A DNA stretch of 55,254 bases from Syntrophales bacterium (lineage in GTDB: Bacteria > Desulfobacterota > Syntrophia > Syntrophales > UBA8958), in NCBI GenBank assembly GCA_023231165.1, contig JALNVY010000001.1, forward strand, positions 1-55,254. Direction: 5' to 3'. Numbering within the stretch: the first letter of the stretch is position 1; the number at the start of each line of letters is the position of its first letter. The translations under genes were made by a program, and so were the position numbers. The notes under the pieces are model-generated. The model searched no databases. It was not told the DNA's origin and saw only the letters and a list, made by a program, of their open reading frames with translations. Positions 18,750-43,954 of this stretch are shown piece after piece.

Positions 18750-18807
18750 ATGGTGAGCGGCATGAGAGTCACTCCCCTGCGAGGGTCAGTCCCGCATACC
18801 TCAATTT

Positions 18808-18843
18808 CCTCCCCTTCAAGGGGAGGGTCGGGGTGGGGATGGG
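18808..18843. repeat. REP-like GC hairpin plus G-rich tail (CCTCCCC-TTCAA-GGGGAGG GTCGGGGTGGGGATGGG)
   Basis: 7-bp perfect stem in the fabA-fabG spacer. Related hairpins occur at 22911-22940 and 34586-34614. Confidence 0.5.
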
Positions 18844-18882
18844 TTATTATTGGTTCATCACATTTATGAGGACTATCATTAA

Positions 18883-20116: not shown

Positions 20117-21397
20117 ATGGAAAAAAGAATTGTCATTACGGGCATGGGTGTCGCCGCCCCTAACGCCCACGGACTGGAGGCTTTTACCGAAGCCTTAAGA
20201 GCAGGCCGTTCCGGTATCCGCCACATCCCGGAGTTGGAGAAGATGAACTTTGGCTGTCAGGTCGGAGGGATTCCTGAAAATTTTGAAGCCGTGCGCAAAA
20301 GCTATTTCGATCACGAAAAGCTCATGTCCATAAATGACAACATCGGTTACGCCTCTGTATCGGCCATCGACGCCTGGCGGGATGCAGGATTTGAGGTTCC
20401 TGAGGGCGATGACGATCGGGTACATTGGGATACAGGCGTCATTCTGGGATCTGGAATCGGGGGGATGGACACCATTGCCCGAAGCGTCGTCCCCATGGTG
20501 AACGCGGGCAAAGTTCGACGCATGGGGAGCCGGATCGTAGAACAGGTTATGAACAGCGGTACGAGCGCCCGCATTGCCGGCCTGCTGGCTTTAGGGAATC
20601 AGGTAACGTCCAATTCTTCTGCCTGCTCAACGGGCAATGAAGCAATCATCGATGCCATGTGGAGAATCCGCATGGGGTTGGCGAAACGGATGTTGGCAGG
20701 TGGTTCCGAGGGAGCTTCCCCCTATACCTGGTCCGGATTTGACGCCATGCGGGTGATCTGCCGGAAATTCAATGACCAGCCGGAGCGGGCCTCCCGCCCT
20801 ATGAGCGCCACTGCCAGTGGCTTCGTCCCCGGAGCAGGGGGTGCTGTCCTAGTCCTGGAGGATTTGGAGACGGCAAGGCAGCGGGGGGCCAGGATCTACG
20901 CCGAGGTTGCCGGAGGGGCTGTGAATTGCGGCGGCCAGCGGATGGGAGGGTCCATGACCGCCCCCAATCCCGCGGGGGTGCGACGCTGCATCCAGGACGC
21001 CATCGCCGATGCCGGAATATCACCCATTGATATCCAGGCTATCAATGGCCATTTGACGGCCACCTACGCCGATCCCATGGAGGTGAAAAACTGGTTCGAG
21101 ACCCTGGGGAGGCCGCTCGCTGATTTCCCCTTCATCAACTCGACGAAATCGATGATCGGTCACTGCCTGGGGGCCGCCGGGGCTATTGAATCGGTTGCCG
21201 TCGTTCTTCAGCTTCACCGGGGATTTATTCATCCCTCCGTGAACAGTGAAGATGTCCACCCGGACATTACGGCCTTTGCAGCGAAGATTCCCCAGCAGGC
21301 GATAGACATGCCCGACCTGCGCGTTATAGCCAAGGCCGGTTTCGGTTTCGGCGATGTGAACAGTTGTCTTATCTTCAAGAAATGGGAAGAAAAATGA
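20117..21397 (+). CDS. beta-ketoacyl-ACP synthase I/II family (elongating KS)
   Basis: 426 aa. The Cys-His-His triad lies in the contexts SNSSACSTG, INGHLTAT and MIGHCLGAAG. Confidence 0.85.
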   Translation: MEKRIVITGMGVAAPNAHGLEAFTEALRAGRSGIRHIPELEKMNFGCQVGGIPENFEAVRKSYFDHEKLMSINDNIGYASVSAIDAWRDAGFEVPEGDDDRVHWDTGVILGSGIGGMDTIARSVVPMVNAGKVRRMGSRIVEQVMNSGTSARIAGLLALGNQVTSNSSACSTGNEAIIDAMWRIRMGLAKRMLAGGSEGASPYTWSGFDAMRVICRKFNDQPERASRPMSATASGFVPGAGGAVLVLEDLETARQRGARIYAEVAGGAVNCGGQRMGGSMTAPNPAGVRRCIQDAIADAGISPIDIQAINGHLTATYADPMEVKNWFETLGRPLADFPFINSTKSMIGHCLGAAGAIESVAVVLQLHRGFIHPSVNSEDVHPDITAFAAKIPQQAIDMPDLRVIAKAGFGFGDVNSCLIFKKWEEK

Positions 21398-21520
21398 CGG
21401 CTTCGTAAAAAGTCCGGATGCGGCGTTGCGCTGCATCCTTCGTCCCTGCGGCGTACGCAGAGTACGCCTCAGTCCTCAGGCTTTGCGCGCCTTGCCTGCG
21501 GATCTTTTTACGAAGCCGTC
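21396..21520 (+). mobile_element. 125-bp MITE-like palindromic repeat, copy 1
   Basis: Perfect 17-bp terminal inverted repeats (GACGGCTTCGTAAAAAG...CTTTTTACGAAGCCGTC) and an internal GGCGTAC/GTACGCC hairpin. It aligns end to end with 38602-38725. No coding capacity. Confidence 0.75.
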
Positions 21521-21589
21521 GATGATAGCCAATATTTATGATTTTTAGGGGTTCATTAAAATTAAATCTATAAAGAAGGAGTTTTAAGT

Positions 21590-21835
21590 ATGGAAGAAAA
21601 TAAGATTTTTACGGAGATGATCGAGATCCTGCGGCTGTATGCGAAGGATAAAACCCACCTGGACCAGGCGACGATGGCGACCCACATCCTCGATGACCTC
21701 AAGGTGAATTCGGCCCGCCTCGTGGATGTCATCATCAAGTGCGAGGATGTCTTCGGGATTACGATCGAGGACGATGAGGCTGACAAGATCCGCACGATCG
21801 GCAACGCCGTGGAGTTGATCAAGAAGAAACTATGA
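21590..21835 (+). CDS. acyl carrier protein
   Basis: 81 aa with RBS AAGGAG. The helix-II attachment Ser lies in LDDLKVNSARLVDV, followed by an acidic helix III (ITIEDDEADKI). Confidence 0.8.
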   Translation: MEENKIFTEMIEILRLYAKDKTHLDQATMATHILDDLKVNSARLVDVIIKCEDVFGITIEDDEADKIRTIGNAVELIKKKL

Positions 21836-37257: not shown

Positions 37258-37836
37258 ATGACGATAGAGAAAATGAAAGCCCGCCTCATCGAGATTATCA
37301 TCGACAAGTCGTTTCAATACCGTGACAATCCACCTTTCACCCTTGCCTCGGGGAAAACGAGCAACTTCTATTTCAACTGCAAACCCACGACCCTCGATCC
37401 CGAAGGGATGAACCTGATCGGGGGAATCCTCTTTCAGATGCTTTCCGCCGCCGATGTTACCGCCACCGGCGGCCTGACCCTGGGCGCCGATGCCCTGGCC
37501 AATGCCCTGGCCGTGATCTCCTATCAGCAGGGAAAGCCCATCAAGGCCTTTATTGTCCGGAAGGATGTGAAAGACCATGGAACAAAGAGCGCTATAGAGG
37601 GGGGTGTCCGGACCGGGGAACGGGTGGTGATCCTCGATGACGTTATCACGACCGGAGGCTCCACGATTACGGCCATAGAAAAGGCAAAAGGGGCGGGGCT
37701 GGTTATTGATCGGGTGATCGCCCTCATCGATCGGGAAGAAGGGGGAAAGGAGAACATCCTGGCCCATGTCCCCAGGGTGGATGCCGTAGTGACACGTTCA
37801 GAAATCATGGCTGCCTATAAAAAAGATCTTGCGTGA
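37258..37836 (+). CDS. pyrE: orotate phosphoribosyltransferase
   Basis: 192 aa with FTLASGKTSNFYFN and the PRPP-binding loop VVILDDVITTGGS. Confidence 0.85.
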   Translation: MTIEKMKARLIEIIIDKSFQYRDNPPFTLASGKTSNFYFNCKPTTLDPEGMNLIGGILFQMLSAADVTATGGLTLGADALANALAVISYQQGKPIKAFIVRKDVKDHGTKSAIEGGVRTGERVVILDDVITTGGSTITAIEKAKGAGLVIDRVIALIDREEGGKENILAHVPRVDAVVTRSEIMAAYKKDLA

Positions 37837-37874
37837 CCGTTTGGTCTGAGGTAAAGGCGGTGCAAAATTTTGAT

Positions 37875-38603
37875 ATGAATGCATGGGAAATGTTCAATAA
37901 ACGTTTTTTCGCCATAATCCTGGTAGTTGTGCTTGTGATTTTTATTTCAGCGGGAGATCTCTTTTCCGTTCTGGAAGAATCAGTCGTGGTGGCTAAATAC
38001 AGATCGCCCCGGTTGGTCGATGGCGTCCCGGAAGGCTGGACCCTGATGAAGCACAGCGGCACCCCGAATATAAATCTAGTCAGGGCGGGAGATGCCTATT
38101 ATGTCAGGATGATAAGTGATCCCCGTTCGGGATTCGGCATCGAAAGGAACATGCGGGTTGATCTCAAGGAATATCCCTATCTCAACTGGACATGGCGGGC
38201 AACAAAACTTCCCAAGGGAGGGGATGTCCGCAAATCCGCAACGGATGATCAGGCCCTGCAGGTCTATGTGGTTTTTCCCTCCACGGTTTTCCCTGAAAAA
38301 CTCAATACCCCGATCCTGACTTATATCTGGGACAATGAAGCCCCGAAGGGCCTGTCGACTCGGAGCCCTAAGCCCTTCCTGAAGAGGATACGTTACCTCG
38401 TTCTCCGTAACAAAACCGATCAACTGGGGAACTGGTACACCGAGAAGAGAAATATCTACGAAGACTATAAGCGGATTTTCCGGGACATCCATGGAGGAGA
38501 ACCCATGGGGGCGATCCATGGCGTCCGTTTTTACATCAATTCCCAGAATACCAGGAGCAATGCCGAAGGCTATATAGGGGAGATGTCCTTCAGCAAAAAC
38601 TGA
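37875..38603 (+). CDS. DUF3047 domain protein (N-terminal membrane anchor)
   Basis: The ORF opens at GTG 37833, overlapping the pyrE stop; the first ATG is at 37875. A TM helix (FFAIILVVVLVIFISAG) is followed by YLNWTWRATKLPKGGDVRKSATDDQALQVYVVF, the DUF3047 pattern. Confidence 0.65.
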   Translation: MNAWEMFNKRFFAIILVVVLVIFISAGDLFSVLEESVVVAKYRSPRLVDGVPEGWTLMKHSGTPNINLVRAGDAYYVRMISDPRSGFGIERNMRVDLKEYPYLNWTWRATKLPKGGDVRKSATDDQALQVYVVFPSTVFPEKLNTPILTYIWDNEAPKGLSTRSPKPFLKRIRYLVLRNKTDQLGNWYTEKRNIYEDYKRIFRDIHGGEPMGAIHGVRFYINSQNTRSNAEGYIGEMSFSKN

Positions 38604-38725
38604 CGGCTTCGTAAGAAGTCCGGATGCTGCGTTGCGCCGCATCCATCGGCACTGCGGCGTACGCCAAGTACGCCTCATTCCTCAGTATCTGCACGCCTTG
38701 CCTGCGGATTTTTTAAAAAGCCGTC
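38602..38725 (+). mobile_element. MITE-like palindromic repeat, copy 2 (124 bp)
   Basis: Aligns over its full length with 21396-21520 (15 substitutions and one 1-nt deletion by hand alignment). It has the same orientation and the same overlap with the upstream TGA stop. The 3' inverted repeat is degenerate. Confidence 0.75.
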
Positions 38726-38769
38726 GATTATGTCAAACTTTTCAACTTTTTAGGGATTCCTCAAAACTG

Positions 38770-43867: not shown

Positions 43868-43954
43868 TGCCGAAGTGGCGGAATTGGTAGACGCGCTAGG
43901 TTCAGGGTCTAGTGGGTGTACGCTCGTCCCGGTTCAAATCCGGGCTTCGGCACC
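43868..43954 (+). tRNA. tRNA-Leu (anticodon CAG), class II with long variable arm, CCA encoded
   Basis: The acceptor stem GCCGAAG pairs with CTTCGGC. The D-arm is GGAATTGGTAGAC and the anticodon stem-loop is CTAGG-TTCAGGG-TCTAG. A long variable arm and the T-arm CCGGTTCAAATCCGG are followed by ACCA. Confidence 0.9.

Follow-up and report, generated by a model that had tools for sequence, protein, structure and literature searches.

In the window, i.e., the whole 55,254-nt stretch of DNA analysed, a beta-ketoacyl synthase gene and a DUF3047 gene each end at the left edge of a copy of the same palindromic repeat, and an AsmA/YhdP-like gene starts just behind the second copy (Table 1). The two copies lie in the same orientation and align from end to end with 87.2% identity over 125 columns, with 15 substitutions and one 1-nt indel, as had been counted in the original prediction. 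The perfect 17-bp terminal inverted repeats (TIRs) of copy 1 were seen again (GACGGCTTCGTAAAAAG and CTTTTTACGAAGCCGTC). The 7-bp stem GGCGTAC/GTACGCC is unbroken in both copies, and both differences between the copies in this segment fall in the loop (GCAGA versus GCCAA). The upstream flanks of the two copies could not be aligned. Therefore, the copies do not represent a segmental duplication.

Table 1. Positions in the window of the two element copies, their target-site duplications (TSDs) and the adjoining genes.
Feature	Position	Strand	Remarks
Beta-ketoacyl synthase gene	20117-21397	+	PF00109/PF02801
Copy 1, left TSD	21388..21395	+	AGAAAAAT; T21395 opens the stop codon of the ketoacyl-synthase gene
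Beta-ketoacyl synthase TGA stop	21395..21397	+	target T plus the first two bases of the element, GA
Copy 1, foldback palindrome	21396..21520	+	125 bp
Copy 1, left TIR	21396-21412	+	
Copy 1, central hairpin	21450-21468	+	7-bp stem at 21450-21456 / 21462-21468
Copy 1, internal inverted TIR copy	21504-21520	+	
Copy 1, tail	21521..21557	+	spacer and outer degenerate right terminal repeat (..ATTTTTAGGGGTTCAT)
Copy 1, right TSD	21558..21562	+	AAAAT, degenerate; 8-mer window ATTAAAAT at 21555-21562
DUF3047 gene	37833-38603	+	stop completed by copy 2
Copy 2, left TSD	38594..38601	+	CAAAAACT; T38601 and GA form the TGA stop of the DUF3047 gene
Copy 2, foldback palindrome	38602..38725	+	124 bp
Copy 2, tail	38726..38760	+	outer right terminal repeat (..CTTTTTAGGGATTCC)
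Copy 2, right TSD	38761..38768	+	TCAAAACT
AsmA/YhdP-like gene, ATG	38770	+	follows the right TSD of copy 2

The element extends beyond the limits first assigned to it. The 125-bp palindrome stood, but its ends are not the real boundaries: the element also takes in about 36 nt on the 3' side of each palindrome, giving a unit of about 160 bp, well within the size of MITEs (less than about 800 bp). This unit consists, in order, of the left terminal repeat, a left arm, the 7-bp central hairpin, a right arm and an internal inverted copy of the left repeat, followed by a tail with a 12-20-nt spacer and, at its end, an outer degenerate right repeat, the third terminal repeat of the unit. The internal copy matches the left repeat perfectly; GACGGCTTCGTAAAAAG and the outer right end, ..CTTTTTACGAGTTC(G/A)TC, share 12-13 matches over 15-17 positions. 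Folded as RNA, the palindrome of copy 1 reached -72 kcal/mol (z = -8.0 versus shuffles). The unit lacks coding capacity, as had been stated: the central loop has 4 to 7 nt, the arms carry insertions, loop and arm lengths shift in steps that are not multiples of three, and no reading frame is conserved. The element inflates the antisense ORFs 21020..21436 and 38076..38678 in the window, and a TTG start at 38632. Near-identical N-termini had been ascribed to these two ORFs; the first does start with MQRNAASGLFTKPS, but the second starts with MRRTWRTPQCRWMRRNAAS, and MRRNAAS is internal to it.

A genome-wide blastn search of the 2.65-Mb draft genome (G000) found 37 full-length copies, and nhmmer added one more together with about nine fragments, giving about 38 full and about 9 partial copies. 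They are dispersed singly over at least 30 contigs, among unrelated housekeeping genes. Candidate copies number more than 140 each in G034 and G386, and at least 45 in the congeneric genome G003 (100% complete). The inverted repeats and the hairpin are conserved among the many copies. All 11 congeneric genomes carry the element, which was also found in 13 of the 28 genera sampled from the order and, across the phylum Desulfobacterota, in 107 of 401 sampled genomes (62 of 254 genera), its presence being largely all-or-none by family. The hosts are sulfate-reducing and syntrophic bacteria, and include Desulfosarcina, Desulfococcus, Smithella, Desulfobulbaceae and Syntrophobacteraceae. Copies are also present in a cultured strain, Desulfosarcina cetonica JCM 12296. 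A blastn search of 5,426 E. coli genomes with the 125-mer (E <= 10) gave no match, and plasmid and viral-contig collections gave none except in one viral contig. At gathering thresholds no Rfam family was matched, the sole weak match being P11 at chance level (9.8 bits, E = 7). Literature searches on MITEs in the host taxa and on Syntrophus/Smithella repeats, together with searches for sequence strings, retrieved no description of the element. In a census of 183,232 genomes, MITE clusters were nearly always genus-specific (PMC11602168); the present element differs from these in its phylum-conserved core, its lineage-consistent presence and its slowly evolving resident hairpins.

Comparison of the ketoacyl-synthase/ACP locus across congeners revealed several states of the same site. 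It is empty in G010, where it reads GAAGAAAAAT|AAATTAAC (the bar marks the insertion point) and the gene ends with TAA (T|AA). Only the tail is present in G003, a truncated copy is present in G011, and the site is filled in G000 and G009. The TSDs are 6-8 bp long, vary in sequence between copies, are A/T-rich and end in T. Among 93 copies, the left 8-mer is repeated 35-37 nt past the palindrome with at most one mismatch in 38 cases (6.9 expected), and perfect 8-mer duplications occur in 11 (0.5 expected); in G034, a perfect 6-mer duplication was found for 24 of 32 copies. The target consensus is yMAWWWWT|GA, i.e., (T/C)(C/A)AWWWWT|GA, with A at -6 in 70%, T at -1 in 85%, and GA 3' of the right duplicate in about 60%. 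Because of this 6-8-bp duplication footprint, we infer that a staggered-cut, DDE-type transposase acting in trans moves the element. The multiple copies, TIRs, TSDs and empty orthologous site support the original assignment to a MITE-like palindromic family with a conserved internal hairpin and without a transposase.

Since both ends of the element start with GA, any copy entering behind the T of a stop codon restores TGA, and the upstream protein stays the same. A TAA at element positions 11-13 closes a second reading frame, and overlapping start codons are preserved by the target duplication. At copy 2, the rebuilt empty site (AACTGATGAAA) has a TGA stop that overlaps the ATG start. The tail was also considered as a Shine-Dalgarno source for the downstream gene and was rejected, the motifs being weak and the spacing in copy 2 about 14 nt. 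Copies cluster strongly and exactly where a co-oriented upstream gene has its stop codon, in many cases within operons, and 29 of 37 copies are co-oriented with the upstream gene according to our own gene calls. Using ORFs of at least 80 codons from a simple in-house ORF picker, and with the copies common to G000 and G003 not being independent, a co-oriented ORF ends at T|GA for 16 of 31 copies in G000 (flank-complete copies), 10 of 30 in G003 and 6 of 32 in G034. When stops inside the duplication or at the TAA of positions 11-13 are added, the counts become 25/31, 20/30 and 13/32, respectively. The rebuilt ancestral stop spans the insertion point in 10 of 16 cases. For other species, 12 of 53 copies lie at T|GA when the boundaries are anchored on the motif; the longest-terminal-stem method mis-set many ends in these diverse taxa. 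Gene ends on the tail side, judged by open frames alone, are confounded by antisense shadow ORFs.

Once the element has inserted, its tail decays at a near-neutral rate and its palindrome is conserved. For 12 copies orthologous in G000 and G003, the palindromes differ by 113 substitutions in 1501 sites (7.5%), versus 17-23% (117/504 = 23%) for the tails at the same loci and about 19% for flanking third codon positions. Thus, resident hairpins evolve 2-3 times slower than these neutral yardsticks, which are rough proxies only. This near-constancy of the palindrome suggests that the host uses the hairpin. Selection on structure had been hinted at in the original prediction, and compensatory changes were indeed found in the inner helices: 45 diverse sequences contain 59 double-change cells versus 13.6 in shuffles, and none of 500 shuffles scored as high. 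The three terminal repeats co-vary between sub-families, with the internal core conserved.

We therefore favor the view that the repeats form a MITE superfamily of Desulfobacterota whose hairpin has probably been kept at cistron 3' ends as an RNA element, a reading to which we assign a probability of roughly 0.6 on sequence evidence. As a non-autonomous DNA transposon, the element inserts at yMAWWWWT|GA-like sites with a 6-8-bp duplication, presumably using a DDE-type transposase supplied in trans. The palindrome would most likely be co-transcribed, and it would persist as a highly stable RNA hairpin that starts at the stop codon. There it may block 3'-to-5' decay, provide a processing site or slow down translation termination and thereby set the output of neighbouring cistrons, as is reported for the stop-proximal REPs of E. 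coli. A more ambitious form of this reading is possible, though doubtful. It would describe a phylum-wide, long-domesticated mobile module of "operon punctuation", in which the transposase delivers the element to stop codons and stop/start overlaps, the element ends restore the stop, the duplication preserves the next start, and the core hairpin is selected as an RNA element tuning decay, processing or termination of neighbouring cistrons.

The placement at stop codons might also be that of a purely selfish, functionless MITE, resulting from transposase preference and the removal of harmful insertions, with the intact palindromes being young. The clear preference for yMAWWWWT|GA and the regeneration of the target by the element ends agree with this explanation, as does a site in G034 that holds two tandem insertions. 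In tight operon junctions, moreover, the stop codon is almost the sole harmless landing place. G034 has the cleanest duplications and yet the weakest stop association (41% versus 67-81%), which fits gradual purging; within a genome, the relation between copy age and stop association was inconsistent, with numbers too small. However, null models of the target motif gave a stop share of 4-10%, compared with the 19-52% observed, although the excess could partly come from an unmodelled insertion preference, or simply from the purging of other insertions. The slow change of the 12 orthologous palindromes relative to their own tails and to third codon positions also argues against absence of function, and concerted evolution, which might have explained such constancy, left no sign among the orthologous G000/G003 copies. 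We consider a selfish element without function unlikely.

Another explanation is that the palindrome is kept for a host function at the DNA level, as a site for gyrase, IHF or another nucleoid protein (cf. enterobacterial BIMEs) or as a cruciform that affects supercoiling. A strand-specific G.U test for RNA structure gave no signal: stem G.T and A.C mismatches are balanced, and the arms have remained complementary, with neither strand biased towards G.U. The mismatches fixed in sub-families are A.C on the element strand. The mismatches thus do not point to the transcribed strand as the folded one. The asymmetric internal loops TCGTCACTGC and CTCATTCCTC have kept their sequence throughout the phylum, as expected for a protein site. 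However, a DNA-level function leaves unexplained why the copies favor one orientation to the upstream gene by roughly 4:1 and why they abut exactly on the stop; either end could give T|GA, so free orientation would be expected. This explanation appears quite improbable to us, and we continue to favor a MITE with a hairpin retained as RNA.

No autonomous element with the same ends was found in G000 or in a complete 7.7-Mb Desulfosarcina chromosome, nor next to the PF01610 or PF01609 genes in relatives and in high-copy genomes. A known partner is also missing for many accepted MITE families. An ISL3 parent, guessed from the TIR and the apparent 8-bp duplication, was rejected: PF01610 is missing in G000 as well as in 32 of 41 relatives, among them the high-copy G034, and the ISL3 copies of G002, G003 and G005 have ends unrelated to the element. 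The IS4/IS5 (PF01609) genes in high-copy genomes have no matching ends, and the high-copy genomes searched contain neither IS256 (PF00872) nor IS1595 (PF12762). The rve (PF00665) and IS66 (PF03050) genes are absent from G034 and G386, and few loci exist in other high-copy genomes; G034 and G386 lack ISL3, rve, IS256, IS66 and IS1595 genes. A search for TIR pairs at IS-like spacing, covering 245 loci and the 7.7-Mb chromosome, yielded a single candidate, a pair 4.7 kb apart that is coincidental. Members of the ISDol1 group, which make 6-7-bp duplications, would be conceivable parents.

The missing cognate IS would fit a REPIN-like REP doublet maintained by a single-copy RAYT (Y1/HUH) instead of a DDE enzyme, and so would the hairpin-forming inverted doublet and its long vertical persistence within families. 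Y1_Tnp (PF01797) genes are present in G000, G034 and G386, one of those in G386 lying about 300 nt from a copy. However, these genes are dispensable: no PF01797 match was found in G003, despite its completeness and copy number, or in about 12 of the 107 element-positive genomes (by hand comparison of listings), one of them a one-contig genome, and 8 of 10 Y1 genes examined have no element copy within 1.5 kb. The variable 6-8-bp target duplications flanking the copies also speak against such an enzyme, as HUH enzymes are not known to produce them. The RAYT/REPIN model was therefore rejected as very improbable. Least credible is a free-standing family of structured non-coding RNA genes (small RNAs or riboregulators) that happens to be repeated, which would fit the strong fold and the co-varying inner helices, but the target duplications and empty sites indicate insertion instead of gene duplication, no promoter-like or terminator-like signal was found around copy 1, Rfam gave no match, and copies lie inside operons.

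Several known repeat systems resemble the proposed MITE superfamily in part. The Correia/NEMIS elements (CREE) of Neisseria are non-coding MITEs of about 100-160 bp with long TIRs, present in hundreds of copies beside genes and co-transcribed, and their long hairpin serves RNase III as a substrate and affects the stability of the mRNA. They duplicate TA, have a Neisseria-type 26-bp TIR and are confined to one genus. The Desulfobacterota element is likewise a non-coding MITE of similar size with terminal inverted repeats, but it is unrelated in sequence, duplicates 6-8 bp, has another TIR sequence and a tail with a third repeat, occurs phylum-wide and is concentrated at stop codons. ERIC/IRU elements are 127-bp imperfect palindromes that have a conserved core, lie in transcribed intergenic regions and are conserved in several bacterial families. 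The present element is of nearly the same size and is likewise an imperfect palindrome with a conserved core; however, there is no sequence similarity (the E. coli genomes searched carry ERIC and REP), and to our knowledge ERIC has no third-repeat tail and no described stop-codon location.

REPs are 20-40 nt long, REPINs are simple doublets, and Y1 RAYTs mobilize them without duplicating the target. According to Liang, Rudd and Deutscher (2015), cited in PMC12306157, about half of the E. coli REPs (260 of 496) lie no more than 15 nt from a stop codon and cause ribosomes to stall there. REP/BIME and REPIN-RAYT systems are similar to the present element as hairpin-forming extragenic repeats at gene 3' ends, and REPINs also persist vertically for long, but the Desulfobacterota element has target duplications and can dispense with Y1 genes. 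A 13-nt stretch, CCGGATGCGGCGT, presumably resembles REP; it is below the detection length of the E. coli blastn search. Rickettsia palindromic elements (RPE) and the Geobacter "Chunjie" MITEs are small and palindromic, with ends adapted to coding regions so that the host gene survives. These are inserted in frame inside genes and translated, whereas the Desulfobacterota element lands on the stop codon and supplies the stop, leaving the protein unchanged. Integron attC sites (e.g., the Vibrio cholerae repeats of about 125 bp) are imperfect palindromes whose start coincides with, or lies within, the stop codon of the co-oriented ORF before them, and they form tandem cassette arrays beside an integrase, with GTTRRRY cores. 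The present element shares with attC the similar-length imperfect palindrome at the stop codon of a co-oriented ORF. In contrast, its copies are single, spread over at least 30 contigs and flanked by target duplications.

The precision with which a DNA transposon settles on stop codons calls for an explanation, and the element offers a good system for studying the conversion of mobile DNA into an RNA or DNA signal of the host. In practice, the element is a possible strain-typing marker and a natural test case for stop-proximal hairpins where genetic manipulation of the anaerobic host is difficult. It also matters for annotation, as hundreds of copies per genome yield spurious ORFs and wrong start codons, and short-read assemblies are broken. 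Several contigs of the G000 draft terminate within an element copy.

The two palindromes in the window align end to end in the same orientation with 87.2% identity, differing, as the original prediction had it, by 15 substitutions and one 1-nt indel. The 17-bp terminal inverted repeats of copy 1 are perfect, the 7-bp stem GGCGTAC/GTACGCC is unbroken in both copies, and both differences within this segment lie in the loop. Because the sequences upstream of the two copies are unrelated, a segmental duplication is excluded. The predicted RNA fold of copy 1 has an energy of -72 kcal/mol, compared with a mean of -42 +/- 3.8 for shuffled sequences (z = -8.0). The proposal that both copies create spurious N-termini in antisense ORFs held at copy 1, where the ORF begins with MQRNAASGLFTKPS, and failed at copy 2, where the MRRNAAS motif is internal to the ORF.

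The draft genome of the window (G000) comprises 2.65 Mb in 363 contigs and is 90% complete. A blastn search of it revealed 37 full-length copies; nhmmer added one more, together with about nine fragments, three of them at contig ends. The terminal repeats and extended stem of the main sub-family (GACGGCTTCGTAAAAAG...) are separated by compensating changes from those of a minor sub-family with six copies (GACGGCGGCGCAAAAAG...TTTTTGCGCCGCCGTC). Diverged sister families in the same genome have unchanged core architecture and different terminal repeats (GGCTGTTGAAAAAC.., CGACGCAGTAAGAAG..).

Coordinates of the element copies and related features (G000 contigs unless a genome is named)
Feature	Location	Remarks
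Copy 1, palindrome	window 21396-21520	upstream beta-ketoacyl synthase gene; downstream small ACP-like ORF
Copy 2, palindrome	window 38602-38725	upstream DUF3047 gene; downstream AsmA/YhdP-like gene
Antisense ORF at copy 1	window 21020..21436	
Antisense ORF at copy 2	window 38076..38678	
AsmA/YhdP-like gene, 5' part of longest ORF	window 38632-38769	begins at TTG 38632, within the element
Orthologues of window 21300-21600	L033-L036	one insertion site: empty, tail only, left 52 nt only, short remnant
Second hairpin repeat	window 18805-18870	
tRNA gene	window 43869-43952 (+)	sole Rfam match in the window
Sister families	C245:3370-3483; C70:5231-5325; C36:6604-6723	
Tail-loss form	C67:4403	compared with its G003 orthologue
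Sub-family with insert	L246-L250, including G003:C49:24372-24593	
Y1_Tnp genes (PF01797, N-terminal)	C131:2085-3026; C356:522-1397	about 300 codons each
Copy near a Y1_Tnp gene	L281 (G386:C1:35355-38687), positions 976-1198	copy with internal insert

When the flanks were included in the alignment, about 36 nt 3' of the palindrome were also found to be conserved; the end of this tail, TTTACGRGTTCATC, is a third version of the terminal repeat, in degenerate form. The boundaries and mobility of the element are settled by the orthologous ketoacyl-synthase/ACP junction in congeneric genomes. G010 has an empty site (GAAGAAAAAT|AAATTAAC, with the stop TAA), G003 has only the tail with AAAAAT at either side (a palindrome-loss form), only the left 52 nt remain in G011, and the full element is present in G000 and G009. 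Among 93 copies from three genomes, the left 8-mer was found again 35-37 nt past the palindrome with at most one mismatch in 38 (6.9 expected from permuted pairs) and was repeated perfectly in 11 (0.5 expected). A perfect 6-mer duplication was present in 24 of the 32 copies of the high-copy genome G034. Where the 8-mer pairs differ at their first two positions, the right copy is mostly TC; this gives a duplication length of 6-8 bp and a probable element end of ...GTC. Target sites follow the profile (T/C)(C/A)AWWWWT|GA, which resembles the palindrome TCAWWWWTGA, and the element ends GA...TC restore this motif at both junctions, in agreement with two tandem insertions at one G034 site. Five G003 copies share a structured non-coding insert of 75-100 nt at element position 85/86, which shows that variants propagate as units. 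The copy counts, the target duplications and the empty orthologous site bear out the predicted MITE-like family as real and abundant.

Insertion at stop codons is far above simple expectation. Considering open frames of at least 80 codons and the G000 copies with complete flanks (n = 31), the frame ends at T|GA, formed by the target T and the first two bases of the element, in 16, at the TAA of element positions 11-13 in four, and inside the duplication in five. The corresponding numbers were 10, 4 and 6 in G003 (n = 30) and 6, 3 and 4 in G034 (n = 32); of 53 copies from other species of the phylum, 12 were at T|GA and 21 were stop-adjacent. Null models using all non-coding or stop-overlapping G000 sites that match TGA, TCA....TGA, or an A/T-rich 8-mer followed by T|GA gave a stop share of 4-10%, and any T gave 0.8%. 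Empty sites were reconstructed from the target duplication for the 16 T|GA cases; in 10, the insertion point fell within an ancestral stop codon, T|GA, T|AA or T|AG. Several rebuilt sites are ATGA-type or 8-nt stop/start overlaps, in which the duplication preserves the downstream ATG. Copy 2 is such a case, with AAC TGA overlapping ATG AAA of the AsmA/YhdP-like gene, whose true start is likely ATG 38770. With regard to orientation, 29 of the 37 G000 copies are co-oriented with the upstream gene according to a home-made gene caller, and only two lie between divergent genes. Reversed copies also abut stops, as on contig C118, where hand inspection of the alignment and of the gene coordinates places the TGA of a gene on the minus strand at the TCA of the element's right end. 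Therefore, the supply of stops does not account for the orientation bias.

RNAalifold and an explicit pair count on 45 diverse sequences revealed compensatory changes in the inner helices (e.g., U-A 21 / C-G 18, and G-C 30 / C-G 9 / A-U 4). There were 59 double-change cells, compared with 13.6 in shuffles, none of 500 of which was equally high, and 95% of cells pair in the real structure versus 17-46% in slid controls. The central hairpin was fixed by the search pattern and is uninformative within this set; in one G000 variant, a U-A pair of this hairpin is replaced by G-C. In the asymmetric internal loops, TCGTCACTGC and CTCATTCCTC, the sequence itself is conserved. These data show that the complementarity of the arms is under selection. 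Because G.T and A.C stem mismatches are balanced, giving no strand signal, the conclusion is limited to complementary arms, without distinguishing between the strands or between RNA and DNA as the folded form.

Twelve copies occupy orthologous sites in G000 and G003. In these pairs, the palindromes have 113 substitutions in 1501 sites (7.5%) and 5 gap positions, whereas the 44 nt past the palindrome have 117 in 504 (23%) and 48 gap positions; a hand tally omitting four pairs with rearranged tails gave about 17% for the tail and 7.6% for the palindrome. The flanking genes diverge by about 19% (range 13-28%) at third codon positions. The lower divergence of the palindromes relative to both suggests that resident palindromes are under purifying selection. 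Gene conversion can be ruled out as the cause, because paralogues are no more alike within a genome than between genomes, and orthologues are not closer than paralogues. Within the genus, paired positions match the consensus in 95% of cases, unpaired positions in 92% and tail positions in 72%, and the chief hot spot of variation is the central loop. The tail, required for movement only, appears to decay while the palindrome is kept.

All 11 congeneric genomes carry the element. Its occurrence in other families of the order is patchy, with identity of up to 85-90% in another family (e.g., G034). In an even sample of the phylum, 107 of 401 genomes and 62 of 254 genera were positive, in a nearly all-or-none pattern by family (7/7, 8/8, 7/7 and 5/5 versus 0/11, 0/12, 0/12 and 0/10). 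At least 118 stretches in named genomes match the core GGCGTAC-N4-7-GTACGCCTCATTCCTC. The hosts among the matches listed include Desulfosarcina cetonica JCM 12296, Desulfococcus, Desulforapulum, Smithella, Syntrophaceae, Desulfobulbaceae, Desulfocapsa, Desulfurivibrio, Desulfoarculaceae and Syntrophobacteraceae, as well as a few Nitrospirota and Rokubacteria MAGs. The architecture is common to the elements of all listed hosts, with terminal repeats of the types GACGGATTCG.., GATGGCTTCG.., AGCAGGCTGTTGAAAAAC and GGCGTCGCAAAAAGTCGCC; all three repeats of an element (left, internal, outer) vary in concert, and the core is unchanged. The element was essentially absent from viral contigs (one match), plasmids and E. 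coli.

In the search for the mobilising enzyme, no ISL3 gene was found in G000, and those of relatives and high-copy genomes, like their DDE_Tnp_1 genes, were rejected as movers because their ends are unrelated to the element's. No rve, IS256, IS66 or IS1595 genes were found in G034 or G386, each of which has more than 140 candidate copies. The complete 7.7-Mb Desulfosarcina chromosome has about 40 TIR pairs, every one about 107 nt apart. The RAYT model is contradicted by the target duplications, by G003 (100% complete, at least 45 copies, no PF01797), and by Y1 genes without flanking copies. Neither of the two Y1_Tnp genes of G000 is flanked by element copies; they lie amid ordinary genes without repeat flanks and thus may be domesticated. 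In G386, about 300 nt separate one copy from a Y1_Tnp gene of 158 codons; of 10 Y1 loci, no other is near a copy except for a contig-edge fragment in locus L285.

Rfam has no family for the element, and literature searches on the sequence, on MITEs in these taxa and on Syntrophus/Smithella repeats yielded no description. The elements apparently constitute an undescribed MITE superfamily. Across 183,232 genomes, a MITE census found clusters to be nearly always genus-specific (PMC11602168), against which the breadth of this family stands out. It goes beyond an ordinary MITE in its insertion at stop codons, its phylum-wide core with co-varying termini, and the evidence that the hairpin is kept by the host. 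REP sequences of E. coli, 260 of 496 of which are situated no more than 15 nt from a stop codon and stall ribosomes there (Liang, Rudd and Deutscher 2015, as cited in PMC12306157), are a precedent for stop-proximal hairpin repeats. By analogy with REP and Correia elements, we infer that the hairpin may have a role at the RNA level. Another short, GC-rich hairpin repeat in the window, TTTCCTCCCCTTCAAGGGGAGGGTCGGGGTGGGGATGGG, is unrelated to this family and occurs at least 33 times in the genome. The sequence after it, GGTTCATCA, resembles a tail end of the 160-bp element standing alone.
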